This document shows positions 13,031 to 26,456 of a stretch of 56,923 bases of DNA, one piece after another (position 1 is the stretch's first letter; each line of letters opens with the position of its first letter). The notes beneath the pieces were generated by a model. The model was given only the letters and a program-made list of their open reading frames with translations. It did no database searches and was not told the DNA's origin. Made by a program: the position numbers and the translations under genes. Where the stretch lies: positions 1 through 56,923 of the forward strand of contig JAKLID010000001.1 of NCBI GenBank assembly GCA_022709795.1, written 5' to 3'. This stretch comes from Patescibacteria group bacterium (GTDB taxonomy: Bacteria > Patescibacteriota > Patescibacteriia > UBA2196 > GWA2-42-15).

Positions 13031-15253
13031 TTATTTTTTAATATATTCTTTGGAGTCTTCCAGTTTGATACTGATCAGTTTGGAGATACCATCTTCACCC
13101 ATAGTGACGCCATAGAGCAGCTTGGCTTTTTCCATAGTGGCGCGGTTGTGGGTGATGACAATAAATTGTGTTTTGTGGGAGAGGTCGGAGAGAATTTGAG
13201 CGAAGCGAAGAGAATTGGATTCATCGAGAGCGGCATCAACTTCGTCCAAGACAACAAAGGGTGCGGGATTGGAGGAAATAATAGCGCAGATCAGAGCAAT
13301 ACTCGTCAGGGCGCGTTCGCCGCCCGAGAGGATGCTGATGGATTTTAATTTTTTGCCGGGCGGGGTGGCGTAGATTTCAATACCGCTGTAGCCGTCTTTG
13401 GATTTTTCTTGAAAGAAATTGGTGGCCGGAGAATTGTCAGCAAGAGATTCTTCCTCGGCTGGCTTGAAATCTTCCTTGATCAGGGAGAGCTCTGCTTGAC
13501 CGCCGTTGAAGAGAATTTTAAAATATTTTTGGAAATAAGTATTAATCTCGTTAAAAGATTCTGACATTTGTTTTTTGATAATCTGTTCCAAATCAGTAAT
13601 TACTTTTTTGAGGGAAGCAATTGTCTGGTTTAGATCATTGGTCTGAGCGGTCAAAAAATCATAACGCGCCTGAACCCGCTGATACTCTGTTTCCACTTCC
13701 GGATCTAGGCCGCCAATGATTTCTAGTTGGCCCTTGAGCCGGTTTATTTTATCTAGGATGGAGAAATTTTGTGCCTGGTCACCCTGGGGCAGGGAAGCGG
13801 TTCGGAGCACTTCGAGGGAGCCCAGTTCCTGAATAATTTCTTGTTTCAAATCAAAGCGTTTGGTTTCGACTCTGGCCAGAGAGATTTTGACTTCATTGAG
13901 CTGATTGTTGGAAAGAGAAAAAGCCTGCTGGGCGGCTTGATATTTTTGCTGGGTTTGCCAGAGGGCAGAGCGTTTGGCCTCATCTTCAGAGAGGAGGTGC
14001 TGAATTTTTGTCTGTAGTTCTCCGGCCTGATGATCCAGGTCGGCGATTTTTTTATCCAAAGCTCGCAGTTCCTGGGGCGGTTCAGGTTTGTTTGCCACAG
14101 CGTCTTCGGCGCGCAAATAGGGCTTGATGAAGAGTAGGAGTGATTTTACGCGGTCATTCAGATCAGCCAGAAGTATTTTGAAACTAGACGCTGCCAAGCC
14201 TCGCCCCAAATCAGCCAAAGCTTTTTGGCCCAGGGAATTGATATTTTCAATTTGTTGGTTGAGCTCAGTTATTTTATCCAAAGAGAGGGTTTTGGTATTG
14301 GTATGGGGCCGGGTTTTTTCAACGAGGGATGATTTCATGGTCCAGAGTTCTTCTCTGGTGCGCATTTTCTTATCCAAAACAGCCTGCTGCTCCAGCCGCA
14401 ATTTTTCTATTTCTTGATTTAAGCCGCTATTTTTGACAATATTATCCAGCTCAGCCTCTAATTTTTTCCACTGATCCTCGTGGATTTTTTTATCAGCCTC
14501 AAGTTGGTTTATTTTGCTCAATTCTTGCTGGTAATCACGATCAATAGTTTGCCAGTAAGCGCTGTAATAGTTGAGGCGCAACTCATTGAGCTCAGCCTCA
14601 ATCTCCTTGCGTTTGTTGAGTTTTTTGATCTGACGAGTGAGGAGATTTAATTGGGGTTCCATTTCTTTGAGACGGATGTTGGCGGTAGTGAGGTTTTGCC
14701 AGACCTGATTGAGCTTGACAATGGTTTGATTTTTTTTGATTTGATATTGTTTGACGCCGGTGGCTTCGTCAAAAAATTCCTTGCGCTCTTCTGGGGTGGC
14801 GATGAGAAAATTATCAATCATACCCTGGCCGATGATGGCATAGGTGCGGTGGCCAAAATTGGCTTGAGTGAGGAGCAAATTAATGTCGGCGAGTTTACTT
14901 TTGCCACCATTGATCAAATACTCACTTTCGCCATTACGATAGATTTTCCTGGTAATCAAAAGGTCGCGGTAATCAATAGGCACTTTCCCGTCAGTATTAT
15001 CCAATTCCATAGAGACCTCGGCCAGACCCAGGCGGGCTTTTTTGTCAGAGCCGGAAAAGATGACATCCTCGCTTTTTTTGCCACGGAGGGTCTTGATACT
15101 TTGTTCACCCATGACCCAGCGGAGAGAGTCGGCAACATTGCTTTTGCCAGAGCCATTGGGGCCGACCACGGCAGTGATGCCACTCGTGAATTCCAGGGTG
15201 GTTTTTTTGGCAAAAGATTTGAAGCCGTTGATTTCTAGCTTTTTTAAGTACAT
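13031..15253 (-). CDS. smc: SMC-family chromosome condensation ATPase, unusually short (~740 aa), no recognisable hinge
   Basis: N-terminal head MYLKKLEINGFKSFA...VVGPNGSGKSNVADSLRWVMGEQS, C-terminal head LSGGERALTSIAL and FVVLDEVDAALD, with continuous coiled-coil-like sequence between them. The ATG at 15253 is preferred over the TTG at 15268. Confidence 0.85.
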   Translation of the reverse strand: MYLKKLEINGFKSFAKKTTLEFTSGITAVVGPNGSGKSNVADSLRWVMGEQSIKTLRGKKSEDVIFSGSDKKARLGLAEVSMELDNTDGKVPIDYRDLLITRKIYRNGESEYLINGGKSKLADINLLLTQANFGHRTYAIIGQGMIDNFLIATPEERKEFFDEATGVKQYQIKKNQTIVKLNQVWQNLTTANIRLKEMEPQLNLLTRQIKKLNKRKEIEAELNELRLNYYSAYWQTIDRDYQQELSKINQLEADKKIHEDQWKKLEAELDNIVKNSGLNQEIEKLRLEQQAVLDKKMRTREELWTMKSSLVEKTRPHTNTKTLSLDKITELNQQIENINSLGQKALADLGRGLAASSFKILLADLNDRVKSLLLFIKPYLRAEDAVANKPEPPQELRALDKKIADLDHQAGELQTKIQHLLSEDEAKRSALWQTQQKYQAAQQAFSLSNNQLNEVKISLARVETKRFDLKQEIIQELGSLEVLRTASLPQGDQAQNFSILDKINRLKGQLEIIGGLDPEVETEYQRVQARYDFLTAQTNDLNQTIASLKKVITDLEQIIKKQMSESFNEINTYFQKYFKILFNGGQAELSLIKEDFKPAEEESLADNSPATNFFQEKSKDGYSGIEIYATPPGKKLKSISILSGGERALTSIALICAIISSNPAPFVVLDEVDAALDESNSLRFAQILSDLSHKTQFIVITHNRATMEKAKLLYGVTMGEDGISKLISIKLEDSKEYIKK

Positions 15254-15445
15254 AATATAGAAACTCAAAACTCAAAATTTAAAACTCAAAAGTATTGATA
15301 AGCATAAACAAAAGAGACCGGGATGGGTCACTTTTATTATATCAGGAAAAGGGTTTTGGGCAAAAGAGAGGTGGGGTGGTAATTAATTTAATGAGTGTCG
15401 GAGTCCCTGGCGGAGACTCCGACGGGGCGGAAAAATTCAATTTCA

Positions 15446-15530
15446 GATAACGTATCGGCACATGCGAAGTTGTGTAGCAATTTGCGCGGAGGCTTTCGGA
15501 GAAAACCGCAGCCGCATGTGCCTTGTTATC
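15446..15530. repeat. attC-like structured site 3 (distal end of the array)
   Basis: GATAAC-GTATC-GGCACATGCG ... CGCATGTGCC-TT-GTTATC: an imperfect palindrome with an asymmetric unpaired spacer. The left arm is nearly identical to that of site 2. Confidence 0.6.
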
Positions 15531-15594
15531 GGATGTAGCGAAAAGTTTTTGTTTTGCCGAATGGCAAAATGATTATTTGGGGGTATTTTAATTT

Positions 15595-16194
15595 TTATTT
15601 TATTTCAATATTTTTTACGATTTTATCAAAATCTGACTTTATTTCTGGAGTCTTTGATGTGTAGTTTGCGCTTATACGGACTATGCCACCTTTACTATTC
15701 TTAAATATGATAGCGTCTACTGTACCCACGCCATCAAATATTGAATAGGAATACTGAATTGCCGACTTTCCACCAACCGCAATGTTTTTGTATTTTGAGT
15801 TAAAACTTGATTCTGGGTTATTTTTTGCCCAATTCAACGGCGAATCATTATTTTTGTTCTCATAAGATATAATTTCAATTCCCGGAGTGTCGCCTTCAAA
15901 TTTCTTTTCACCAATCCACAAATATGCGCGCTCAACAACCTTTCCGCCCATATCTTGATTTTCATTTAAATTATACTGAGCTGGATATTCAAAACTCACA
16001 CCGATTTTTTCACTTGCAAATATCTTACTACTAACATGTTTTGACGTGGATGAAACAACTTCTTTTCTTAGTTCAGTCTCTGTTTTTTTTGATTCAGTGG
16101 TAACTGTTTTTGGGAAATTACCCTCTGAATTTGAGCAACCAGAAAGCATGATGGATGTGCTTAGTGCGAATGCGATGCAAAATTGCTTTTTCAT
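15595..16194 (-). CDS. Cassette ORF: lipoprotein of unknown function
   Basis: MKKQFCIAFALSTSIMLSGC carries a lipobox (LSGC). The start is taken at the ATG at 16194, because the upstream part of the tracked ORF lies in the repeat frame. I recognise no family. Confidence 0.7.
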   Translation of the reverse strand: MKKQFCIAFALSTSIMLSGCSNSEGNFPKTVTTESKKTETELRKEVVSSTSKHVSSKIFASEKIGVSFEYPAQYNLNENQDMGGKVVERAYLWIGEKKFEGDTPGIEIISYENKNNDSPLNWAKNNPESSFNSKYKNIAVGGKSAIQYSYSIFDGVGTVDAIIFKNSKGGIVRISANYTSKTPEIKSDFDKIVKNIEIK

Positions 16195-16263
16195 TTTGTT
16201 ATATAAAAAATAAAATACCCCCAAATAATTAACGCCGAAGGCGCAAAAACTTTTTGCTATTTC

Positions 16264-16444
16264 CGATAACGTATCGGCACATGCGAAGTTGCGCCGTGGA
16301 TTATTGATTATTTTTGTTAATATCGCTTTATTTGATTATACCACTAAACTTACCATTTCGTCAGCGCAATTTGGGAGAGGAAATTTTGCATACCTTTAAA
16401 ATATAATTGCGCAAAATTTCTGAACCGCATGTGCCGTGTTGTCT
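16264..16444. repeat. attC-like structured site 2
   Basis: CGATAAC-GTATC-GGCACATGCG ... (long loop) ... CGCATGTGCC-GT-GTTGTCT. The loop contains the GCAATTTGGGAGAGG motif, which is related to loops of site 3 and the satellite site at 38658. Confidence 0.6.
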
Positions 16445-16560
16445 GATGTATTTTTTCATCTTCTGCTTAATTGCACAAAACTTGTTTATTCTACTAGAAA
16501 ATTTGATTTTTTAAATTAAAAGTTTTTGTTTTGCCTTTAGGTAAAACAGATTATTTGGGG

Positions 16561-17703
16561 CTATTTTTTATTTTTTATCAAAATTTGTCCTCTTCCTATC
16601 CACTCAATCAACTCGTTGGCTTGGGCGTCGATATTCAAAAGAAGTTCTGGGTAGCATGGCTGCAATTCGGCGTTAAAAATCAACAACTCTTTTAATCCCC
16701 GTGCGTAGTCAAATCCTAGCTTTTCGCAATTCTGTAAAAATTTTCTTCTGAAAGGTATTAGCTTTTCTTTTCGTGAATCTGATACAACTGAAAAAGTTTT
16801 CATATCCGATACAATCCTATGAAAAACTCGCAATAATTCCATTGTAATTCGGCAGAGCTGAATATCTGAGCTATTGGTAATTTCTGAAAATTTTGTAATC
16901 AGTGGCATGATGTGATCGACCTCGTAGGCTTTGTCTGAATTGTTCACCAACATCAATAGTCTTTCTATGCCCACAACTGAAAATGACCAAAAATTTTCCC
17001 AATGAACTAAATCGACGATTGTGCCGTCCTTGTAAATTGGTCGCCACAACAAATTTTCGATTGAGGCTATATCCAATGGCTCATCCAAATTATCCGTTTT
17101 GTATAGAATTTCATTTCGATAACCCCACGCAACGGGTGGAGTGAAATTTAGAGCCAATAGAGTTGTTCTTGTTTGGTCGGGTATGAATTGTTCGTCGTTG
17201 ATTCCAAATTCTTTTGCAATCTTGATAAATGGGTCGGCTTCGAGATTTTTATCAAACTTATATTTTCCAGCAGTTATTTCTTCGGCTTTTCCGCCTGATA
17301 AATATGAAATAACGAAGCGTTGTGGCTCTAGCCCCAACTCATTTATCAAAAACTCGAAAATTTTTCTGATAGTAAAATCGGCGATGTCTTTGCGTTGCTC
17401 ATCCGTAACATCCTTTCCGCCAACAAAGCCTGACACATCAGCCATATCAAAAAGCAAAAGATGGATATCGTCCATGGCATCATTGAAGTCATTAACTCGT
17501 ATCACTTGTTGAATTGTTGAAAAGTTGTAGGCCTCAGAATTGTCTAAATAATTACCGAATTTTTCAAGAAATGGCGCCTCACCAAAACTTATGTTGAAAT
17601 TTCCAGGAAAGCCCTTGTTCACAATCAAAGAGCGAGGAATCTTTTGAACTCCTGAATATTTAGAAAAATTTTCAATTTTATTCCTTAACTCTAAATATTT
17701 CAT
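16561..17703 (-). CDS. Cassette ORF: stand-alone alanyl-tRNA-synthetase N-terminal (catalytic/tRNA-recognition) domain homolog, divergent
   Basis: By-eye collinear similarity to the AlaRS N-domain: LELRNKIENFSKYSG ~ AEIRQAFLDFFHSKG; ISFGEAPFLEKF ~ TNAGMNQFKDVF; STIQQVIRVNDF...HLLLFDMADVSGF ~ TSQRCVRAGGKHNDL...HHTFFEMLGNFSF; AWGYRNEILY ~ GPCGPCTEIFY; VVGIERLLMLV ~ GMGLERIAAVL; CRITMELLRVFHRIV ~ LRVIADHIRSCAFLI. No editing or C-Ala domains are present. Confidence 0.65.
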   Translation of the reverse strand: MKYLELRNKIENFSKYSGVQKIPRSLIVNKGFPGNFNISFGEAPFLEKFGNYLDNSEAYNFSTIQQVIRVNDFNDAMDDIHLLLFDMADVSGFVGGKDVTDEQRKDIADFTIRKIFEFLINELGLEPQRFVISYLSGGKAEEITAGKYKFDKNLEADPFIKIAKEFGINDEQFIPDQTRTTLLALNFTPPVAWGYRNEILYKTDNLDEPLDIASIENLLWRPIYKDGTIVDLVHWENFWSFSVVGIERLLMLVNNSDKAYEVDHIMPLITKFSEITNSSDIQLCRITMELLRVFHRIVSDMKTFSVVSDSRKEKLIPFRRKFLQNCEKLGFDYARGLKELLIFNAELQPCYPELLLNIDAQANELIEWIGRGQILIKNKK

Positions 17704-17829
17704 AAAAAATAAAAAATAGCCCCAAATAATCCCGCCGTAGGCGGAAAAACTTTTAATTTAAAAAATCAAATTTTCGTCTTTGTTCATTGCACGGAACCCG
17801 AAATTACCACCAAAGATGAAAAAATATTT

Positions 17830-17927
17830 CAGACAACGTTCGCGTGTATGCGATGTTTTGTGGAGCGTAGCGGAACAAAATATGGGTGGAGCGACCTTAG
17901 GAGCGTAACCGCATACACGCTGTTATA
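17830..17927. repeat. attC-like structured site 1
   Basis: AGACAAC-GTTCGC-GTGTATGCG ... CGCATACAC-GCT-GTTATAC. The architecture matches sites 2 and 3, with compensatory changes in the inner stem. Confidence 0.55.
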
Positions 17928-18124
17928 CGCTGTTCAAAAAATATTTTTCATTCAATTTCATTTTGACAGGCTTTTTATTCAATAATCATAAATTTGTTTT
18001 TTTGTTTTGGATTTTGGGCAGAGGGGTTAGGGGTGAATGCCCAAATCCAAAACTCCTTATTCTGTTTGAGGGAGGGGCAAGAGGGGAACTAAAGGGGTGA
18101 ATTGCCCCGACCGAAAACACTTCT

Positions 18125-20419
18125 TTAATCAAAATCTGTCTGATCTTTTTTATTAAAGTTATTCAGAAATAAATCAATTGCCTCTTTATTGTTTTGATAT
18201 TGCTCTGAGTTTTCTTCTTTTATTCCTTCCAGTTTTGTTTTTAACTCCTCTAAATCAAGGAAATCTGACAAACTTTTATAATTAAATCTTTTTGTAACCC
18301 TCGTGCCATAGTCACCAATAGTTTGGCTTCTGCTTTCCGAAACGAATTTAGCTATGAAGACCAGTAATTTTTGATTGGCATCACTAATTGTTTTTATGAA
18401 GTCTCCCCACTTACTATCTTTGCTCCATTCTTTCCAACGGTACAAAATGTAAAGTAAGTTTTTATGTTTCAATAAATCATCAGGGTTAGTTTCTTCGATT
18501 TTTTCAAGACATAATTTTTGTAAATCTTCAATTTTATCTTCCGGCACAACAAATTCGTCCGAATCTTTGCCCTTTTCTTTTCTTGATGACTCCAAAGAAA
18601 CTTTTTGTATTGGACCGAAGAGACCTTTGGACTGCGGTATAGCTTCTTTTAATATTTCATAATTTTTGCTTTTATCAGACTCTCTTTTTAGCAACTGATA
18701 AATTATTCTCATCAAATCCATATCTATTCCGAAATCCCACATCCCAACTTTTTCTTCGGGCAAATCATCGGAAATGTTGAAAAGTGTCTTAACTACATTC
18801 TTTGCATTATCTTGCGAAATACGAGTTTGATCACCTGTAAAATCTTGAATCCTTTGTAAAACCTTCCTGATTTTCTTTTTCTCAATGTACTCCCTAATAA
18901 TCTTTTCAAGATCTTCTGTTGAATTTGTTTTGCTTAAAATTTCCTCAATTTCAAACTGGCTTAATTCTTCCTCGTCACCACCAGGAATTAGCGTAAAGTA
19001 GCTATCAAAATTATTTGTAGCACATACCCTTAAGTTATTGCTCCAAATAGACTGCCATTCGTGTCCGTGCGTTGAATAACCGTACTGAAAAATGCCGTCA
19101 ACTTGTGGAAATAATCTTTTTAATAACTCAAGAACAGATTCTTTTATTTCGCTTGGTAGTGCATTCAACGCTTTTTCAATTTCATCTTTTCTTGGATTGT
19201 TATCCCTTGAACTTCGCTCGTTCCTATCAGTAGAAGTAAAAATCACACTTTTATCACGCATGAATAAGTAAAAATCCGGCGCAAAAATTCTAATTGCCTC
19301 AATGGCAATGAAATCTATCGGGTTTACTTCCATTATCTTACCTTGATACATCTGAGAGATATTAAATTCCAAACTGCTTGCGAACCTTTTTACATCTCGT
19401 ATGTTTTTGAAAAAATCTTTGAAACCTGAATGATAAACATTTACCCAATACGGTTCGTCTTGTCCAAAATATTTTTGTGCAGATTCAGGTAATATGCTCA
19501 AAATCCGATCTAGCTCTTTGAAAAGAAATGTGGATATTTTTGATGGTTTTGCAAAAGGCACGTTAAAATGCACTTGGACTATCTTATTCAAATAATCCTT
19601 TCCTGAAACACCAATTTGCTCTTCAAGATTTTGCTCAACAATTTTTCTATCAAAAGCCAAGAGATAAATTGTATTTGGAAAGTCTGCGTTTATCCGAATT
19701 AGTCTAAAAATTTGTTTAATTTCTGATTGATTTAGTCTATCAATATCGTCAATGACGATCACAATTTTTTTATTTCGTTCCAAAAGCTCTTTTTTTATTT
19801 CGTTTTTTAATTCTGTAATAGATTTTTTATTCACTAAATACTTCTGTTGAAAAAAATCTGACAAACCAAGCAAAAAATCTTTAAATAATCCAACCAAAAA
19901 TAAAACGAGACCTATCCCAAAAAATGTATATTTAATCCAGTTTGCCGGTATCTCTAACCATTGTATTATTTGGCTGGACGAAATACCGATTAAGCCCAAG
20001 CCCAGAAGAACTTTTGATGAAAGAATACTTAAAGTTTCCTTTTTGGGTGTAAGACTTAGTAATTTAGAGTACAGCTTCAGTTTTTCTGCAATCTTTTTAT
20101 CTTTTGATGAGCCATGTTTAATCTCAAGTTCTTTGGCTATTTCGTTAAAAAAGTGAGTACTGAGATTTTTTTCTTCGGAAAAGCCCCACGGATTAAATCC
20201 AATAATTGTTGGTTTATCGTCGTTTTTTGTGGCCTCAATGTACTCATTGGCTAGGTTAATAACTGACGATTTTCCAGATCCCCATTCACCATAAATCGCA
20301 ATAACAAGACTTTCTTTTTCTTTCCAATCCAAAAGTGCTTTCCCAAGATGTTGAGAAAATCTTTTTCTGCTTAGGAAATCATCTTTTTCGGTTTCGATTG
20401 GTTTGTCGTAAATAAACAT
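18125..20419 (-). CDS. KAP-family P-loop NTPase with inserted transmembrane helices
   Basis: Walker A IAIYGEWGSGKSSVINL. Two hydrophobic helices (VLLGLGLIGISSSQII, FFGIGLVLFLVGLF) lie between Walker A and Walker B (IVIVIDDIDRL), the hallmark KAP topology. The start codon is 2 nt after the res stop. Confidence 0.9.
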   Translation of the reverse strand: MFIYDKPIETEKDDFLSRKRFSQHLGKALLDWKEKESLVIAIYGEWGSGKSSVINLANEYIEATKNDDKPTIIGFNPWGFSEEKNLSTHFFNEIAKELEIKHGSSKDKKIAEKLKLYSKLLSLTPKKETLSILSSKVLLGLGLIGISSSQIIQWLEIPANWIKYTFFGIGLVLFLVGLFKDFLLGLSDFFQQKYLVNKKSITELKNEIKKELLERNKKIVIVIDDIDRLNQSEIKQIFRLIRINADFPNTIYLLAFDRKIVEQNLEEQIGVSGKDYLNKIVQVHFNVPFAKPSKISTFLFKELDRILSILPESAQKYFGQDEPYWVNVYHSGFKDFFKNIRDVKRFASSLEFNISQMYQGKIMEVNPIDFIAIEAIRIFAPDFYLFMRDKSVIFTSTDRNERSSRDNNPRKDEIEKALNALPSEIKESVLELLKRLFPQVDGIFQYGYSTHGHEWQSIWSNNLRVCATNNFDSYFTLIPGGDEEELSQFEIEEILSKTNSTEDLEKIIREYIEKKKIRKVLQRIQDFTGDQTRISQDNAKNVVKTLFNISDDLPEEKVGMWDFGIDMDLMRIIYQLLKRESDKSKNYEILKEAIPQSKGLFGPIQKVSLESSRKEKGKDSDEFVVPEDKIEDLQKLCLEKIEETNPDDLLKHKNLLYILYRWKEWSKDSKWGDFIKTISDANQKLLVFIAKFVSESRSQTIGDYGTRVTKRFNYKSLSDFLDLEELKTKLEGIKEENSEQYQNNKEAIDLFLNNFNKKDQTDFD

Positions 20420-20421
20420 AG

Positions 20422-23097
20422 CTAGTTTTTAAATGCCTCCGCCAACTGTTTAAAGCTCGTCGGTTTGTACTTGTCCCATTCTTCCTGCTTCACATAAAGC
20501 ATTTTGTAGGCGATTTTTTTCTGTCTTTCGCTTGCGTCCTCGCACCATTGCCCCAACCTCTTTATCTTTTCAATATCGTCTAAATCTTCTCGTCCTTTTG
20601 TTTCCACAATATAAATCGTTTTATTGTCCGTTTTTACGAAAAAGTCGGGATAATAACTGGAAATTGCCCCGCTCGCGTTTTTATAATCAATTTTGAAATG
20701 AATTTCATAATAATTTTTAGCGAAAGAAATCACATCGTCAGCGCCTTCTAAAAAGTCGGCAAATTCAAGTTCAAAATCGCTATCCCCGACAATTTTATTG
20801 AATACGCTCTTTTTGGGTAGCAAATATTTTTTATCGGTAACAACAAACGGTCTTGCACTGCTTATTTTGAGATAATTTTTTATTTCCGTGTCGCCAACAT
20901 CTTGCACGGTCAGATTATTTATTTCCTTTTTGAATGTTTCCACGATAGTTTTTACCGCTTCCAACTCGGATAAATTTCTCAAAATATTTGCGTCATTCAG
21001 ATCAACTTTTTCGCTGAATAAATCGTTGCCGATAAATTCTTTTACTTTGCCAAAAAGTATATCGTAGCACCCAAAAAGGCGCAGTTCTTTCATTATTCTT
21101 TGCACAAAAAATCCGACAACGCTTTGATAATTTGGTTCAACAGTACTATTCAAAATCGTTGTGTGATGAAGTTTGTCATCAATTACTTCCTTAAAAACAA
21201 TCTCTTTCTTTTCTTCCTCTGAAAATTGTTTTATTGAGATTTTTTCGTGCTTAAATCCGGCAACATTCAATAAATTAAGATTTTTATATTCTCTTTGTAT
21301 TCTCGGCGTTAAAACCGGCAATTCAATGTCTAAATTTTCAATGTCTTTTTTTACATTCTGATTATCAACTTCAATAACAGTCGGTGTAATCGGCGAGCCG
21401 GAACGATCCATTTTTCGTTTTTCTAGCTCAACGCCTTCCGCCTTGATTGATTCCACAAACTCCATAAAGGCGGGCGTGCCGATAACGCTCACATATTCCT
21501 CAACATCTTGACCAAAAAACATTCGACGAAGACCGCGACCCAATGTCTGCTCCGGCAATATCTTTGAATCAGAGCCATACGGGCGTAAACCAACGATTGT
21601 CGTTACATTTTTGACATCCCAACCCTCTTTAAGCATTAAAACGGAAACTATCACCTTGTAGGGGCTTTCCATGCTGTCTATCTCATTAGCTTTCTTTCTC
21701 AAATCTTGCAGTTCTTTTTCCTTTTTTCCGGTAACTGTTTCCGATATTTCACCGCTCTTGTTTGTATGAATGGTTAAAACCGCGCCTTTCAATTGCGGAT
21801 AACTTTTTTCCAAAAACTCCGCCACATCGTCGCAATTTTTTGTGTCGTCCGTCATTATGAAAAGAATCGATTTTTTGCCGGTCGGCTCAAGTTCCTTGTA
21901 TGTTTTTCCCCATTCTTCAACTCCTAGCCGGATGTAGTCCTCGTATTTTTCAGAAAATATTGAGCTTTGTTTTTCTTGCAATTTCGCTCGGCTCGCCTGA
22001 TCCGGCAAAACCGGATTTTTTACCACACCCTGATGTATTGCTTCAACCAAAGGATAATCAGAAACGGTTTGCACAAAAATTTCCCCACGATTATTTTTTG
22101 GCGTAGCCGTAACATCAATTTGCAAAGCTAATTTTTTGCCCTTTTGCAATAATCTGTTGTGGATATCTTCAATAGATTTAAACCACGCCATTTTTGGATC
22201 GTGGATATGGTGGGCTTCGTCGTTGATAACCATTAACTCATCAACATCGCGGACTATTTCGCCCAAATCAATTTTTGAATCATTGGTTTTGCCGACAACC
22301 TTGTCGCCCAAAAAATAATCTGATGTATCTTCATCTTCAAAACTCGCTTCGTTGATACTACCTTCATAAACTCTATGGATGTTAGTCAGAAAAATATTTC
22401 CCGATTTTGAAATCGTGCCAACTTCGTCCTGTAAATGTAGTTTGATTTGAAAATCATCTTGCCAATTTTGCCCACTATATCCGTTATCCGGCAAAATCGG
22501 ATCTTCGTAAAATATTTTCAATCCTTCAAAATCGGTTTTAATTCTATCTAAAACGATAATGTTCGGCGTGATAAGCAAGAAGTTTTTAGAAAGTTCTGAG
22601 TTTTCCTCGTAGAGTTTGTGAAAATATGACCAAGCCAAGAGCAAGCTCATTACTTTTGTTTTTCCGCTTCCTGTTGCCATTTTAATCACAAAGCGGAGCC
22701 AGTCCTCGGTAAACATATTCGGGCTTACCCGACCCAATTTATCAAACTTGATCAAATCGTATTTATTGGCAACTTTCTCAACATCATAAATCCAAATAAT
22801 CGTTTCTACCGCTTCTCGCTGGGCGTAATAATATTGAAAGGCAACACTTGTGCCGTCTTTGGCAAAAATTGTGTGCGGTTCTTTAAACCACCAATTCAAG
22901 AGTGCTTTTGAAGTTTCGCTCGCGCCTTCGTAGTTGTTTTTTCGCCACTCAGCTACTTTTTCCCGAAGTTCCGGCACAAAAGGTGGCAAAAGTTTTTCAT
23001 AACCTTCTTTGCGCAAATCTTCATCAGCCGGAAACCACCTGATTGACGGATCGAGTATTTGGAATTTATCTTTGGGAAAATTTTTGTGTAATGCCAT
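20422..23097 (-). CDS. res: Type III restriction enzyme Res subunit (SF2 DEAH helicase plus C-terminal PD-(D/E)xK nuclease)
   Basis: Motif I KMATGSGKTKV, motif II VINDEAHH, motif VI LPEQTLGRGLRR, and C-terminal YYPDFFVK...IYIVETKG. The start is set at the ATG at 23097, 4 nt after the mod stop; the longer tracked ORF overlaps mod. Confidence 0.9.
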   Translation of the reverse strand: MALHKNFPKDKFQILDPSIRWFPADEDLRKEGYEKLLPPFVPELREKVAEWRKNNYEGASETSKALLNWWFKEPHTIFAKDGTSVAFQYYYAQREAVETIIWIYDVEKVANKYDLIKFDKLGRVSPNMFTEDWLRFVIKMATGSGKTKVMSLLLAWSYFHKLYEENSELSKNFLLITPNIIVLDRIKTDFEGLKIFYEDPILPDNGYSGQNWQDDFQIKLHLQDEVGTISKSGNIFLTNIHRVYEGSINEASFEDEDTSDYFLGDKVVGKTNDSKIDLGEIVRDVDELMVINDEAHHIHDPKMAWFKSIEDIHNRLLQKGKKLALQIDVTATPKNNRGEIFVQTVSDYPLVEAIHQGVVKNPVLPDQASRAKLQEKQSSIFSEKYEDYIRLGVEEWGKTYKELEPTGKKSILFIMTDDTKNCDDVAEFLEKSYPQLKGAVLTIHTNKSGEISETVTGKKEKELQDLRKKANEIDSMESPYKVIVSVLMLKEGWDVKNVTTIVGLRPYGSDSKILPEQTLGRGLRRMFFGQDVEEYVSVIGTPAFMEFVESIKAEGVELEKRKMDRSGSPITPTVIEVDNQNVKKDIENLDIELPVLTPRIQREYKNLNLLNVAGFKHEKISIKQFSEEEKKEIVFKEVIDDKLHHTTILNSTVEPNYQSVVGFFVQRIMKELRLFGCYDILFGKVKEFIGNDLFSEKVDLNDANILRNLSELEAVKTIVETFKKEINNLTVQDVGDTEIKNYLKISSARPFVVTDKKYLLPKKSVFNKIVGDSDFELEFADFLEGADDVISFAKNYYEIHFKIDYKNASGAISSYYPDFFVKTDNKTIYIVETKGREDLDDIEKIKRLGQWCEDASERQKKIAYKMLYVKQEEWDKYKPTSFKQLAEAFKN

Positions 23098-23101
23098 AAT
23101 A

Positions 23102-25324
23102 TTAAATATTAACCTCAATAACTTTTGTCGTATCGTTGCCGAATATGTCAATCACCTTGATTGCGATTTTCATTTTGCCTTTTGGCGCATCTTTGAAAGC
23201 TGAAGTTAGCTCAAGCGTTCGGTCTTTTTTGGTTCTGAAAGATTGCCATTCGTTTTCAAAAATATAACTTCCTGTCCATTCTTCTTTTTCTTCGCCTGTT
23301 CTTTCGTCAACTACGCGCACGATTTCTCTTTTACTTTCAAAATCAAAATCCACTGACCAATAATCAATCCAGTCCGTCCATTTTTTAGTCAATACTTCAC
23401 GCTCAATAATATCGGTGTTTTTATCTTTGGAAATTTTTATCACCTGGCCATTTTCAATGATTATTTTATTTCCGCCGGATTGTAATTTTTCTTCCACTTC
23501 GCCAGTGTTATCTTGGTTATAGAAAACCGAAAAATCGGATAGCTCAATCGCTACTTCTTTGGCGTTGCCTCGTCCGCGAATTATTGGTTTAACTTCAATG
23601 TAGGCGATATCATAAAATTTGACCTGTCCTTTTTCCACCGCTTTTTTATCAAAAACTTCGCGGGGAATGACTTTGAATTGTACATCAATGCCGAGCTTTT
23701 TGGCGCTTTCAAAATCTAGCCCCATTTCATAGTCAAATCCCAAAACATCGGCTTTGGTTATTTTCTTTTCTTTGCACTCACTGATTATTTTTTCCAGAAA
23801 ATCATTGGTAATAGGCGAATCAATTGATCCAATGGCGATTAATCTATCTCTCTTTTTTCCGACAAAAGCATTAAAAGAATCAACTGGTTCGGCTTTGTAA
23901 GCTGATAAAATAAGTTTTATAAATTCTTTTTCTTTATTTTCTCGTTGGATTCTTTTTTCTTCTTCACGCAAATTTTCATTCACAGTCAAATACTTTGCTC
24001 GTTCGTATTTACCGATGTTTAAAATCTCAAACGCCCGAAAATCCTTGCCGGCTTTTTTAAGTTCTCTCTGCACGCCAATCATTCTTTTGCGAGTAGTGTG
24101 AATAGAAAATTTGCCGACATCGGAAGCAATCCACTTTCTACCCATTTTTTCAGCGACAGCAATCGTGGTTCCTGATCCATTAAAAAAGTCTGCTACTAAA
24201 TCGCCCTCTTTTGTAGATATATCTATAATTCTTTGTAAAAGTGGCTCTGCGTTTTCTGTTGGATAACCAGTTTTGAAAGCATAGCCTGCAACATCAGTCC
24301 AGTTTGTGTCCAAGGTGTCTGTGTTTTTTGCCTTTACCCAGTATTGTAGCTTATTTGGATTGTTTGGATTTATTCGAAGCAAACCTTCTTTATACATTTT
24401 CTGTATATTGTCTTCGCTGAATTTAAAATGCTTTCCTGTAGGTGGATAAAATATTTTCCCATCAATTACTCTTTCTCTTGGTCGTCTTTCTCCGCTACTA
24501 TCATCTGAGGCACGCCAGTAGCCCGCGCGTTCATTTTCCAGTACTTTGGTAATATGTTGGAATTTTGAATTATTCTTAAAATAGACAAACAAGGAGTCGT
24601 TCGCCGTTGGCAGTGAGACTTTACCCTGTTCGGTAATATTTTTCTTTATCCTGTTAATGACAATTTCGCTCTGAAATTTATCTTTACCAAAAATCTCGTC
24701 TAACATTGCCTTGGTATAATGACCCCAATGCCAATCAATACGAAAGAAAAAAATACCATCATCAGCGAGCAAATCTTTCATTAGTTTAACTCTTTCATAA
24801 AGCATTGATAGAAAGGTGTTTCCGCCACTACCCCAAGTATTGCGATATGCAAATTCTTCAATTATAGACGGCGATTTTTGAATTGTTTCGCCTTCACCAA
24901 TTGATACTCCAATTGAATAATCTAACCCTGCACTAAATGGCGGATCAATATAAATTAGTTTTAGCCCGCCTTCTGCTTCAATTTGTTTTCGCAAAGGACC
25001 ATTTTTGAGCGATGATAAAATCAACTTATTGTCGCCCCAAATAAGTTTATTTGACCAACCCTTGATCTGTCTGCCAGAAGTATCAAATAGTGTAGTTTGT
25101 GCTGTGATTTTTTCTTCGCTTCTCGGCTCGTCAATATGCTCAATTGCCTGAAAAGGCAAAACCATATTTTCTACTTCATCAGTTTTGCCATTCCACAAAA
25201 GCTCAACCTCACGTTCGGTATCAAAAAGCAAAAACCGGTATTTTTCCGGCAATGGTTTGCCCGATTCCAAATACTTTATAACATCTCTTTTTTCGTTGTC
25301 GGTGAGGTTTAGTTTATTGCTCAT
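23102..25324 (-). CDS. mod: Type III-like N6/N4 DNA methyltransferase Mod (beta-class motif order) with ~300-aa C-terminal extension
   Basis: LIWGDNKLILSSL, catalytic motif IV LIYIDPPFSAG upstream of AdoMet motif I DFFNGSGTTIAVA, collinear with EcoP15I Mod. The extra C-terminal region ends in VIDIFGNDTTKVIEV. Confidence 0.9.
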   Translation of the reverse strand: MSNKLNLTDNEKRDVIKYLESGKPLPEKYRFLLFDTEREVELLWNGKTDEVENMVLPFQAIEHIDEPRSEEKITAQTTLFDTSGRQIKGWSNKLIWGDNKLILSSLKNGPLRKQIEAEGGLKLIYIDPPFSAGLDYSIGVSIGEGETIQKSPSIIEEFAYRNTWGSGGNTFLSMLYERVKLMKDLLADDGIFFFRIDWHWGHYTKAMLDEIFGKDKFQSEIVINRIKKNITEQGKVSLPTANDSLFVYFKNNSKFQHITKVLENERAGYWRASDDSSGERRPRERVIDGKIFYPPTGKHFKFSEDNIQKMYKEGLLRINPNNPNKLQYWVKAKNTDTLDTNWTDVAGYAFKTGYPTENAEPLLQRIIDISTKEGDLVADFFNGSGTTIAVAEKMGRKWIASDVGKFSIHTTRKRMIGVQRELKKAGKDFRAFEILNIGKYERAKYLTVNENLREEEKRIQRENKEKEFIKLILSAYKAEPVDSFNAFVGKKRDRLIAIGSIDSPITNDFLEKIISECKEKKITKADVLGFDYEMGLDFESAKKLGIDVQFKVIPREVFDKKAVEKGQVKFYDIAYIEVKPIIRGRGNAKEVAIELSDFSVFYNQDNTGEVEEKLQSGGNKIIIENGQVIKISKDKNTDIIEREVLTKKWTDWIDYWSVDFDFESKREIVRVVDERTGEEKEEWTGSYIFENEWQSFRTKKDRTLELTSAFKDAPKGKMKIAIKVIDIFGNDTTKVIEVNI

Positions 25325-25499
25325 AGTTTTTTATTACCTATTGTTATTGTATTCGTTTTCCCCTTATAAATAAATCGTTTTCGTAGCGAAGCGGAGAAAA
25401 CACCTTATACCCCTTTCTAATAAATAAAAAAACAAATTTATTCCCCTTTTTAAAAAGCCTGTCAAAATTTCTTATTATCGGAAAAATATTTTTTGAATT

Positions 25500-25577
25500 G
25501 CGTATAACTCGTTTATATGCGAAGTGTTGGCGTAATAGTGACCTTTTATTGTCTATTAGGCGAACTTCGTTGTATAA
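25500..25577. repeat. Recombinase-proximal structured site 0 (attI-like position)
   Basis: GCGTATAAC-TCGTT-TATATGCGAAGT ... ACTTCG-GTTGTAT. The left arm is the same type as the attC-like sites and the right arm is truncated. The right box overlaps a TATAAT (25573-25578) about 48 nt upstream of the recombinase ATG. Confidence 0.45.
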
Positions 25578-25625
25578 TTAAATAGAGGATGTTAATAAGT
25601 TAATATTAACAAAACTCAAGTAAAT

Positions 25626-26456
25626 ATGCAAAATTTTAATTATTTGTTAAAAACAGAAGAAGAACTAAAATTGAGAAACTATAGCCGAAAAACTATAAAA
25701 AGTTATTTAGCGTGTTTACAAAAATATATTGATTTTTTAACTAAGAATTCAACGAGCATAAAAAATTTGTCATCAGAAGAAAAGGTAAAAAAGTTTTTGT
25801 TAATGCATCAAGATAGGGGCGATGCCGGACAAACCATAAATTTGTATTTAAATGCTATTAAATTTTTTTATCGCGAGATTTTAAAATCAAATGAGAAAAT
25901 TGATTTAAAGTTTGCCAAAACCAGTAAAAAATTACCAGAGGTTTTATCGCGGTTAGAAATTGAAAAAATTTTAGCCAGTATTGAAAACAAAAAACATAAA
26001 TTATTAATTGCTTTAAGTTATGGCGCGGGACTGCGGGTGAGCGAGGCAATAAATTTAAAGATTAAAGATATTGATTTAGAAGAATTAACCATTCATTTGA
26101 GAGAAGCTAAAGGCAAGAAAGATCGTTTAACTATTTTTTCAGGAAAAATTAAAAAAGATTTGCAAAGAATAATGGTTGGCAAGTCTGCCAATGATTATGT
26201 TTTCGAAAGCGAAAGACAGGGTAAATTAACAGAGAGAACAGCGCAAAAAGTTTTTTATAAGGCCTTGAAAAAAGCGGGGATAAAAAAGCCAGCTTCTTTT
26301 CATTCTCTACGGCATAGTTTTGCCACCCATTTATTGGAAAATGGCGTGGATGTGCGCTATGTGCAGGAGCTTTTGGGGCATGCGAATATCCGGACAACGC
26401 AGATTTATACCAAGGTGATAAATCCGAGTTTGAAGAATATAAAGAGCCCGCTATAA
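25626..26456 (+). CDS. Tyrosine site-specific recombinase (Xer/IntI-like, SAM-like N-domain)
   Basis: N-domain LRNYSRKTIKSYLACLQKYIDFL. Catalytic boxes GLRVSEAINL (R), KGKKDRLTIF (K), HSLRHSFATHLL (HxxR) and LLGHANIRTTQIYTKV (H...Y). The spacing between the K box and the HxxR box is Xer-sized. Confidence 0.9.
   Translation: MQNFNYLLKTEEELKLRNYSRKTIKSYLACLQKYIDFLTKNSTSIKNLSSEEKVKKFLLMHQDRGDAGQTINLYLNAIKFFYREILKSNEKIDLKFAKTSKKLPEVLSRLEIEKILASIENKKHKLLIALSYGAGLRVSEAINLKIKDIDLEELTIHLREAKGKKDRLTIFSGKIKKDLQRIMVGKSANDYVFESERQGKLTERTAQKVFYKALKKAGIKKPASFHSLRHSFATHLLENGVDVRYVQELLGHANIRTTQIYTKVINPSLKNIKSPL

Follow-up and report, generated by a model that had tools for sequence, protein, structure and literature searches.

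A stretch of DNA of 56,923 nt from a Patescibacteria group bacterium (contig JAKLID010000001.1; here the window) carries an open reading frame (ORF) for a 380-aa stand-alone protein related to the N-terminal part of alanyl-tRNA synthetase (AlaRS). On balance, we favour the view that this ORF encodes a functional, neofunctionalised descendant of the AlaRS catalytic fragment, which would act as an adenylate-forming ligase on a new substrate, probably with a tRNA-like acceptor. The view draws on an ATP site that is kept and an alanine pocket that has been rebuilt across a family found in bacteria of the Candidate Phyla Radiation (CPR) and in DPANN archaea, and on the private tRNA genes that adjoin the gene in sister clades. 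The window copy lies in a one-gene cassette of an integron-like array. Neither Pfam nor NCBIfam has a name for the family, and the literature searched yielded no paper on it.

Homology and predicted fold

The ORF is present on the minus strand exactly where the initial annotation had placed it (Table 1), and all seven pairings with the AlaRS N-terminal domain that had been proposed there by eye are recovered by profile–profile alignment. As a single sequence the protein gives an E-value of 0.049 against tRNA-synt_2c (Pfam PF01411; 12.6 bits, below the cut-off of 30.3) and of 9.4e-5 against TIGR00344 alaS (20.8 bits versus 457, below threshold), and its search against PDB returns noise only, so that a family profile was required. 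A word search yielded 22 homologues, 12 of which match PF01411, and an exhaustive search yielded 146 clusters at 50% identity. The family profile identifies AlaRS catalytic fragments in PDB at an E-value of 7e-6, and hhalign places the 85-sequence family alignment on AlaRS N-terminal fragments with a probability of 100% and an E-value of 8.6e-41, residues 1–380 corresponding to residues 3–375 of the E. coli enzyme. The AlphaFold2 model of the protein has a predicted local distance difference test score (pLDDT) of 92.1, falling below 50 at residues 375–380, and a predicted template modelling score of 0.90. Its first 19 PDB matches in Foldseek are AlaRS catalytic fragments (E-values 5e-18 to 4e-15, template modelling (TM) scores 0.71–0.79), the best of them at TM 0.75–0.79, with archaeal AlaRS and the GlyRS alpha subunit ranking after. 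An AlaRS-like fold is thus found by both profile and structure comparison, and together they indicate that the protein is a true but very distant AlaRS homologue comprising the aminoacylation domain and part of the tRNA-recognition domain, in agreement with its first description as a stand-alone catalytic-domain paralogue.

The class II fold, the order of motifs 1–3, the helical tRNA-recognition domain that follows and the ATP contacts (motif 2 Arg, motif 2 Phe, motif 3 Arg) are those of the AlaRS catalytic fragments of known structure (E. coli residues 1–441, PDB 3HXU; Methylomonas, 9JC7 and 9JDN; A. aeolicus, 1RIQ; human, 4XEM). In the helical domain R292, H295, R296, D300 and R311 are kept in all clades, with R292, D300 and R311 corresponding to R288, D296 and R305 of E. 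coli AlaRS. The family differs from these fragments in being 16–19% identical to them, in its replaced alanine residues and new invariant set, and in a 17-residue insert, while the protein described here ends about 65–85 residues earlier. It stops at about residue 375 of E. coli AlaRS and has neither the editing nor the C-Ala domain, as had been claimed, and its gene, unlike that of AlaRS, is accessory, mobile and not essential.

Active site

Although some of the 85 members are only about 25% identical to the query, F36, N37, S39, E42, Q65, R69, D72 and F85 are conserved across them, as are G194, Y195, R196, E198, D/E211, T/S214, E216, G245, E247, R248, R292 and D300. In the complex of a bacterial AlaRS with ATP and alanine, the motif 2 Arg lies on the α-phosphate and a Phe/Arg pair sandwiches the adenine (PMC12143591). 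The corresponding R69, F85 and R248, which align with R69, F90 and R242 of E. coli AlaRS, are maintained throughout the family: R69 and F85, the counterparts of Arg68 and Phe89 in the ATP complex 9JC7 (PMC12143591), are each present in 84 of 84 sequences, and in motif 3 G245 and R248 are found in 85 of 85 and E247 in 84 of 85.

The alanine pocket, by contrast, has been replaced. In AlaRS, Asp235 (E. coli D235) binds the α-amino group of alanine (PMC12143591). Its position is occupied here by F241 and across the family by I, L, F or V. W170 and G237 of AlaRS, which we take to be alanine-pocket residues as well, correspond to an invariant Leu (L183) and to V243 (V, A or G across the family), and M43 corresponds to an invariant Glu (E42). 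The replacement set of E42, L183, Y195, R196, T/S214, E216 and a hydrophobic residue at 241 is invariant family-wide, and the active-site constellation is identical in every clade, bacterial or archaeal. The 17-residue insert has no AlaRS counterpart and carries conserved G137, G146, K147 and Y148.

Between the window gene and its nearest relative (L012, from Moranbacteria) the ratio of non-synonymous to synonymous substitution rates (dN/dS) is 0.07 at a dS of 0.62, and the window gene is under strong purifying selection. This value, together with an ATP triad and about 20 other active-site positions that are invariant in CPR and DPANN, points to a pocket that has been remodelled rather than one that has decayed. 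The labels degenerate and pseudoenzyme in the initial annotation are therefore not borne out. Of the substitutions at invariant AlaRS sites that it listed, that of the Asp in the DTGMGLER box stands, with F241 in its place (the residue had been paired one off, with S242), whereas the catalytic Arg of motif 2 is in fact kept as R69.

Canonical alaS genes in the carrier genomes

The source genome (931 kb, 93.5% complete) has, on contig C58, the full-length alaS that had been proposed as something to look for elsewhere: it encodes 645 aa, scores 457 bits and carries the DTGMGVER box and the editing motifs HxxxH and CxxxH. Each of five other paralogue-carrying genomes likewise has a canonical alaS (408–475 bits), which makes six of the six genomes tested; judged from these sequences, the 380-aa protein is not the organism's AlaRS. 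The canonical enzymes of these Patescibacteria, as seen in L001 and the open frames surveyed, are themselves short (about 580–650 aa), with catalytic and editing domains and apparently without C-Ala. A 605-nt contig of the source genome (C87, positions 434-601) ends in the N-terminus of a second canonical-type alaS that is 54% identical to the C58 gene, and which could be a second alaS or reflect strain heterogeneity or slight contamination.

That the window protein is instead a second, minimal but genuine AlaRS is scarcely credible. The model for such an enzyme is the mini-AlaRS of Tupanvirus, which likewise has no editing domain and no C-Ala domain, is also carried on a mobile genome and acts through the acceptor stem only (PMC10036535); the shared domain content and the strong fold match to AlaRS favour the comparison. 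The equivalents of D235, W170 and G237 are, however, all replaced, the scores lie far under the alaS family cut-offs (20.8 versus 457 bits; 12.6 versus 30.3), a long branch separates the family from AlaRS, and every genome tested has its canonical alaS. Moreover, the Tupanvirus enzyme is a recent derivative of host AlaRS that charges tRNA-Ala with alanine, whereas the family described here is ancient and highly diverged and has lost the alanine pocket.

Private tRNAs and TrmB-like partners in sister clades

A pattern scan of 185,579 species genomes gave 41 family loci. In 11 of the 41, the stop codon of the ORF is overlapped by a same-strand tRNA gene or followed by one that begins no more than about 50 nt away, against a chance expectation of about two for loci that are not independent of one another. 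Most of these adjacent tRNAs are non-canonical (Table 1), with an acceptor stem NGGGGUG/CAUCCCN (usually G5:U68), discriminator A73, a D-loop without G18G19, a T-loop GUGCAA and the anticodons UAC, UAU and UAG. A covariance model built from these private tRNAs scores them at 79–92 bits and normal tRNAs at no more than 72 bits; ARAGORN missed three of them. One genome holds a normal tRNA-Ile(UAU) in addition to the odd one. The idea, put forward in the initial annotation, that the protein is a tRNA binder gains indirect support from these neighbours, in the sense that tRNA would be the substrate of an enzyme; the decoy role attached to that idea does not.

A TrmB-family protein adjoins the family gene, usually divergently, in about eight of 42 loci, in both CPR and DPANN genomes. 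Furthermore, four members (522–543 aa) carry a C-terminal extension of about 150 aa that is homologous to the C-domain of the TrmB-like neighbours (hhalign 99.1%, E-value 8e-19). For the C-terminal extensions of the longer members neither Pfam nor PDB gives a sequence match; they were identified only through these neighbours and through their fold, which the model shows to be the PLD-like fold of TrmBL2/TrmB. When the neighbours of the 42 loci were clustered, no conserved enzyme partner emerged (MccF/S51, SAM synthetase, carrier protein or Mur ligase), and only TrmB-like regulators and tRNAs recurred. Gene order and fusion indicate that the wider family is a module of an enzyme, one or more private tRNAs and a TrmB-like partner. 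The window clade has the same active-site and helical-domain residues as its sister clades, without a TrmB-like partner adjacent or fused; the only TrmB-like gene of the source genome is a distant one on another contig.

As a separate observation, the sole tRNA-Trp candidate of the source genome (C12:47339-47409, minus strand) has a 6-nt anticodon loop, CCCCAG, and an acceptor stem with a G3:U70 wobble and a C2-U71 mismatch.

Proposed activity and alternatives

We propose that the enzyme would use ATP to convert a substrate that is not alanine into an acyl- or aminoacyl-adenylate, and would pass the activated group on to the 3′ end of a tRNA-like molecule recognized through its acceptor stem. 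An acceptor of this kind is suggested because the acceptor-stem-binding helices are conserved and because in sister clades, whose active-site constellation is the same, the stop codon of the gene overlaps a private tRNA gene. The Tupanvirus mini-AlaRS shows that acceptor-stem binding and charging can be achieved by a catalytic fragment on its own (PMC10036535). The window clade has no private tRNA, so that in the source genome and the three genomes closest to it the acceptor would be a tRNA of the host or some other molecule.

Several observations weigh against this proposal. A private tRNA was found neither in the window cassette, nor in the whole source genome, nor in the genomes of L012, L013 and L014, and ARAGORN reports no tRNA anywhere in the window, so that for the window clade (these three and the window) homology alone provides the link to tRNA. 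The C-terminus of the protein falls at about E. coli residue 375, before the end of the 441–461-residue fragment known to be active, and part of the tRNA-recognition domain is missing. The strand register at the positions of AlaRS E209, N212 and V214 is ambiguous, hhalign adding seven residues where the hairpin geometry of the model would suggest a different pairing, so that the pocket can be described only in part; the family alignment offers no conserved Asn around the matching strand. Finally, no promoter-like site was detected from the upstream attC-like site to the ATG, which is preceded at 25 nt by a terminator-like hairpin.

The preserved ATP site and the loss of the α-amino-binding Asp would also suit a tRNA-independent ligase, which would adenylate an amino acid or small carboxylate and hand it on to a protein lysine, a carrier or a small molecule; AsnA, the SerRS-like amino-acid:carrier-protein ligases and the side-activity of AlaRS as a lactyltransferase offer parallels. 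The initial annotation had itself raised an amino-acid ligase whose acceptor is not a tRNA, and such a role is possible. The absence of a private tRNA from the window clade fits such an activity, as do the neighbourhood (about eight of 42 loci) and fusion (four members) links to the PLD-like C-domain of TrmB, which in TrmB binds small effectors, and the finding that AlaRS itself can adenylate lactate (PMC12143591). We nevertheless consider a tRNA-independent ligase unlikely, though plausible for the tRNA-less window clade, given the conservation of the acceptor-stem-binding helices with their invariant Arg, His and Asp residues, the private tRNAs of the sister clades and the lack of a carrier protein or conserved metabolic partner in the neighbour survey.

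AcmF, from ascamycin biosynthesis in Streptomyces sp. 80H647, is a stand-alone, truncated AlaRS-like protein of the same domain content (aminoacylation and tRNA-recognition domains only), in which the Asn and Asp of the alanine site are changed and which coexists with a canonical AlaRS (PMC12945691). A transferase of this type would dispense with ATP activation, bind a charged aminoacyl-tRNA with A76 in the old adenylate site and pass the aminoacyl group to a small molecule or other acceptor, a scheme with which the helical tRNA-binding domain kept in the family and the tRNA genes of sister clades are compatible. AcmF is, however, described as having lost most of the ATP-binding residues, whereas R69, F85 and R248 are invariant here, and it resides in a nucleoside-antibiotic cluster together with AcmD, which is a dedicated AlaRS, and the hydrolase AcmE (PMC12945691). 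The window copy is a one-gene cassette, and none of the 42 loci has a biosynthetic cluster or an AcmD-like or AcmE-like partner. An AcmF-type role is in our judgement quite unlikely.

The adenylate-forming ligase that we favour can also be placed in a bolder frame, which we regard as a long shot. The family may constitute a horizontally mobile 'orthogonal' synthetase system shared between CPR bacteria and DPANN archaea, AlaRS-derived and anticodon-blind, whose rebuilt pocket would load a non-alanine substrate onto private, deviant tRNAs (with a G55 T-loop and the anticodons UAC, UAU and UAG reading NUA codons) under TrmB-like control; the window copy would then be a tRNA-less cassette version working on host tRNAs.

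The integron-like cassette

The gene occupies the middle one of three cassettes in an array (Table 1) whose GC content is about 36%, against 42% for the genome. The three attC-like sites have one architecture, with an outer 6-bp box GAYAAC/GTTRTC, a bulge, an inner box of 10–11 bp (GGCACATGCG/CGCATGTGCC or a variant) and a variable spacer, and the right-arm pattern TCGCATRYRCNNNNACGTTRTC occurs three times in the window against 0.01 expected. In single-stranded DNA the sites fold as bulged hairpins, that of the AlaRS-like cassette with an 11-bp inner stem. In each unit the first 25–28 bases complement the left arm of the unit's own site and not that of the preceding site (inverted pairs I5, I7 and I6, of which I5 joins the start of cassette 1 to its own attC left arm), a footprint left by integron-type recombination at G↓TT (the arrow marks the crossover). 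An attI-like G↓TTATAC lies at 25508/25507.

The best model for the recombinase is the XerA-like NCBIfam NF040815, 'tyrosine recombinase/integron integrase' (223 bits, cut-off 220); against TIGR02249 it reaches 219.8 bits, below the cut-off of 265, in two pieces that skip about 55–70 model positions corresponding to the IntI-specific insert. Because it matches integron-integrase models only in pieces without this insert, the system is best classed as integron-like rather than as a classical integron. Its likeness to the attC-bounded, IntI-driven cassettes of integrons, including archaeal ones (PMC9668308), extends to a cassette that consists of one promoter-poor ORF and, after it, an imperfect palindrome with bulged bases, the G↓TT crossover, the complementarity of the cassette start to its own attC left arm, the array in one orientation divergent from a tyrosine recombinase, and the occurrence of the same cassette in different arrays. 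It differs in having a recombinase that is Xer-sized (276 aa) and without the additional domain that IntI has around patch III, core boxes of GAYAAC/GTTRTC instead of RYYYAAC/GTTRRRY, one cassette of 7.7 kb, and ORFs that are also framed by inverted repeats of about 80 nt.

The Moranbacteria relative L012 (91% identical in amino acids, 88% in nucleotides) shares only positions 16187-17840 with the window; its cassette begins ACG↓TTGTC after a different inner arm and retains its own attC. In the Uhrbacteria relative L013 (79% amino acid identity) the gene lies in a cassette of the same build, again with a different upstream inner arm, and both cassettes are bounded at ACG↓TTGTC and ACG↓TTATC. 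These boundaries indicate that the AlaRS-like cassette has moved between Moranbacteria- and Uhrbacteria-like genomes, which upholds the mobility proposed initially. In L014 (77% amino acid identity) the gene is a bare ORF between an mraY-like gene and murD, without repeats; this position, seen for P0004/L014, was considered as a cell-wall clue and rejected, being confined to one lineage.

The PifA-like and Type III restriction–modification genes next to the AlaRS-like gene form a separate cassette, and the AlaRS-like cassette has other neighbours in L012 and L013. The adjacency would therefore be incidental, and the functional link to a defence operon that the initial annotation proposed is not supported; a survey of homologues places defence neighbours in this window only and most members among housekeeping genes. 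A dead pseudoenzyme that sequesters tRNA(Ala), as a decoy or as a counter to tRNA-targeting nucleases working with the defence operon, would account for the adjoining cassette and for the lost alanine site, and integron cassettes often carry defence genes. We regard such a decoy as very improbable, however: the invariant Arg/Phe/Arg triad and some 20 pocket residues are hard to explain in a mere binder, L012, L013, L014 and 38 other loci do not share the defence adjacency, the AlaRS region beyond residue 375 that reads G3:U70 is missing, and searches with PADLOC, with PHROGs and by tblastn against 50,697 phage records returned no match for the 380-aa protein.

Other features of the array concern its flanks. 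Each cassette ORF is framed by inverted repeats of about 80 nt (a second pair lies at 15525-15598 and 16203-16270), with terminator-like mini-hairpins pointing inward on each strand. These ORF-framing flanks are, by eye, about 95% conserved between the window and L012, above the synonymous sites of the ORF (dS 0.62). A sigma70-like, near-consensus, TG-extended promoter-like element, CTGACG-18-TATAAT (16364-16335, minus strand), lies in the attC spacer of the AlaRS-like cassette and is directed into the next cassette, and a copy of this promoter with the attC right arm, ending ACGTTAT, is found on contig C23 of the source genome (C23:33892-33913), upstream of a gene for a secreted Cys-rich protein. 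A search of positions 15200-18300 with Rfam (E-values up to 1) and with the unfiltered private-tRNA model returned no RNA element.

Distribution of the family

Family loci occur in Moran-, Uhr-, Sacchari-, Pacei-, Buchanan-, Berkel-, Peregrini- and Vogelbacteria and in Pace-, Woese- and Nanoarchaeota. The family is rare and was absent from 400 other evenly sampled Patescibacteria species, in which the weak matches are canonical AlaRS. In a tree rooted on AlaRS it forms one clade on a long branch, with bacterial and archaeal rows interleaved, and the well-supported branches require at least four domain switches, subject to binning errors in metagenome-assembled genomes (MAGs); the family thus seems to pass between the domains Bacteria and Archaea. 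The genomic contexts are mostly housekeeping and not conserved.

One member (L023) lies beside a methionyl-tRNA formyltransferase gene on a 3.5-kb contig assigned to 'uncultured Gammaproteobacteria'; the assignment is probably a binning error, and a genuine occurrence beyond CPR and DPANN is less likely. A Nanoarchaeota MAG (L027:6868-9191) has two tandem, divergent copies that belong to different tree clades, with a TrmB-like gene directly upstream. Five loci carry an ordinary tRNA-Ser (GGA or CGA) immediately upstream of the family gene, which may be an insertion hot-spot for the module. A 387-aa gene downstream in L020 was considered as a further paralogue and proved not to be one.

Table 1. 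Features of the window and of related loci. Positions without a prefix refer to the window; the prefix L denotes loci and P proteins. Labels D and I in the last column denote direct and inverted repeats.
Feature	Position	Strand	Basis or remark
ORF of the 380-aa stand-alone AlaRS-like protein	16561..17703	minus	ATG start, ORF list
Class II aminoacylation-domain homologue, residues 1–255 (motif 1 region, motif 2, motif 3)	16939..17703	minus	corresponds to E. coli AlaRS about 3–250; strand/helix order of AlphaFold2 model
Motif 2 region, residues 64–89; Q65, R69 (α-phosphate Arg), D72, H81 and F85 (adenine stack) kept	17437..17514	minus	family alignment
Family-specific insert, residues 137–153, GGx5TxGKYxF	17245..17295	minus	gap in AlaRS row of hhalign alignment
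Motif 3, residues 241–248, FSVVGIER; G245-x-E247-R248 kept	16960..16983	minus	family alignment
Helical domain, residues 256–374, matching first part of AlaRS tRNA-recognition domain	16582..16938	minus	PDB profile match of 246–375 to 228–356 of 9JDN
Array of three cassettes (7671, 1567 and 819 bp)	15440-26456 including recombinase	minus (cassettes)	repeats, folds
AlaRS-like gene cassette, 1567 bp: leader, ORF, trailer, own attC-like site	16270..17836	minus	direct-repeat spacing 1567 (D1); boundaries ACG↓TTGTC, ACG↓TTATC
5′ leader arm of ORF-framing inverted repeat, including start codon	17704..17775 (17698-17775 with start codon)	minus	I1 (34 nt, 97%), I2 (31 nt, 100%); terminator-like mini-hairpin 17746-17730
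3′ arm of ORF-framing inverted repeat, encoding last residues LIKNKK and stop	16497..16582	minus	I1, I2; antisense-facing hairpin 16525-16550 (plus strand)
attC-like site of AlaRS-like cassette: left arm ...CAGACAAC ACGGCACATGCGG, 140-nt spacer, right arm CTTCGCATGTGCCGATACG	16270..16462	minus	repeats D1, D7, inverted pair I7
attC-like site of upstream defence cassette; its G↓TT is the 5′ boundary of the AlaRS-like cassette	17837..17949	minus	imperfect hairpin with bulged bases
Cassette 1: Type III Mod 23102-25324, Res 20422-23151, PifA-like KAP NTPase 18125-20419	17837..25507 (7671 bp)	minus	Pfam; PADLOC PifA 2.1e-86
Cassette 3: PsbP-like lipoprotein 15595-16224 and own attC-like site	15451..16269 (819 bp)	minus	repeat spacing, I4, I6, fold, weak Pfam PsbP_2 match
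XerA-like tyrosine recombinase, 276 aa, divergent from array	25626..26456	plus	Pfam Phage_integrase 3.4e-43
Non-canonical tRNA genes at 3′ end of sister-clade genes	L018:1481-1553, L022:9141-9213, L026:9150-9413, L031:9145-9305, L035:3252-3324, L016:4687-4760, L025:2756-2833, L021:9138-9217, L045:9173-9245		
TrmB-like neighbours (examples)	L026:7112-7915, L047:3977-4765	minus	
Fusions to PLD-like domain	L049:9051-9554; proteins P0025, P0045, P0067		
tRNA-Ser upstream of family gene	L017:7889-7976, L020:7796-7884, L021:7913-7998, L022:7745-7832, L051:6845-6930		

Implications

Paralogues of class II synthetases in which the core was duplicated, accessory domains were lost and the acceptor or substrate changed include HisZ, EpmA/PoxA, AsnA and the SerRS-like amino-acid:carrier-protein ligases. 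These derive from HisRS, LysRS, AspRS and SerRS rather than from AlaRS, and we know of none that is carried as an integron cassette. What is new here is the anatomy of the cassette with its boundaries in three genomes, the family-wide invariance, the absence of private tRNAs from the window clade and the fusion to a TrmB-type C-domain.

Synthetase paralogues with new chemistry (HisZ, EpmA, AsnA, AcmF) have repeatedly revealed unexpected biology, and to our knowledge very few of them derive from AlaRS. The present family, confined to two groups of ultra-small symbionts, combines an intact ATP site with a wholly new invariant pocket. If the enzyme does load a new substrate onto tRNA-like acceptors, it would represent a natural, added aminoacylation activity and a ready-made orthogonal pair for engineering; even otherwise, the protein, at 380 aa small and confidently modelled, offers a target for a new adenylate-forming activity.

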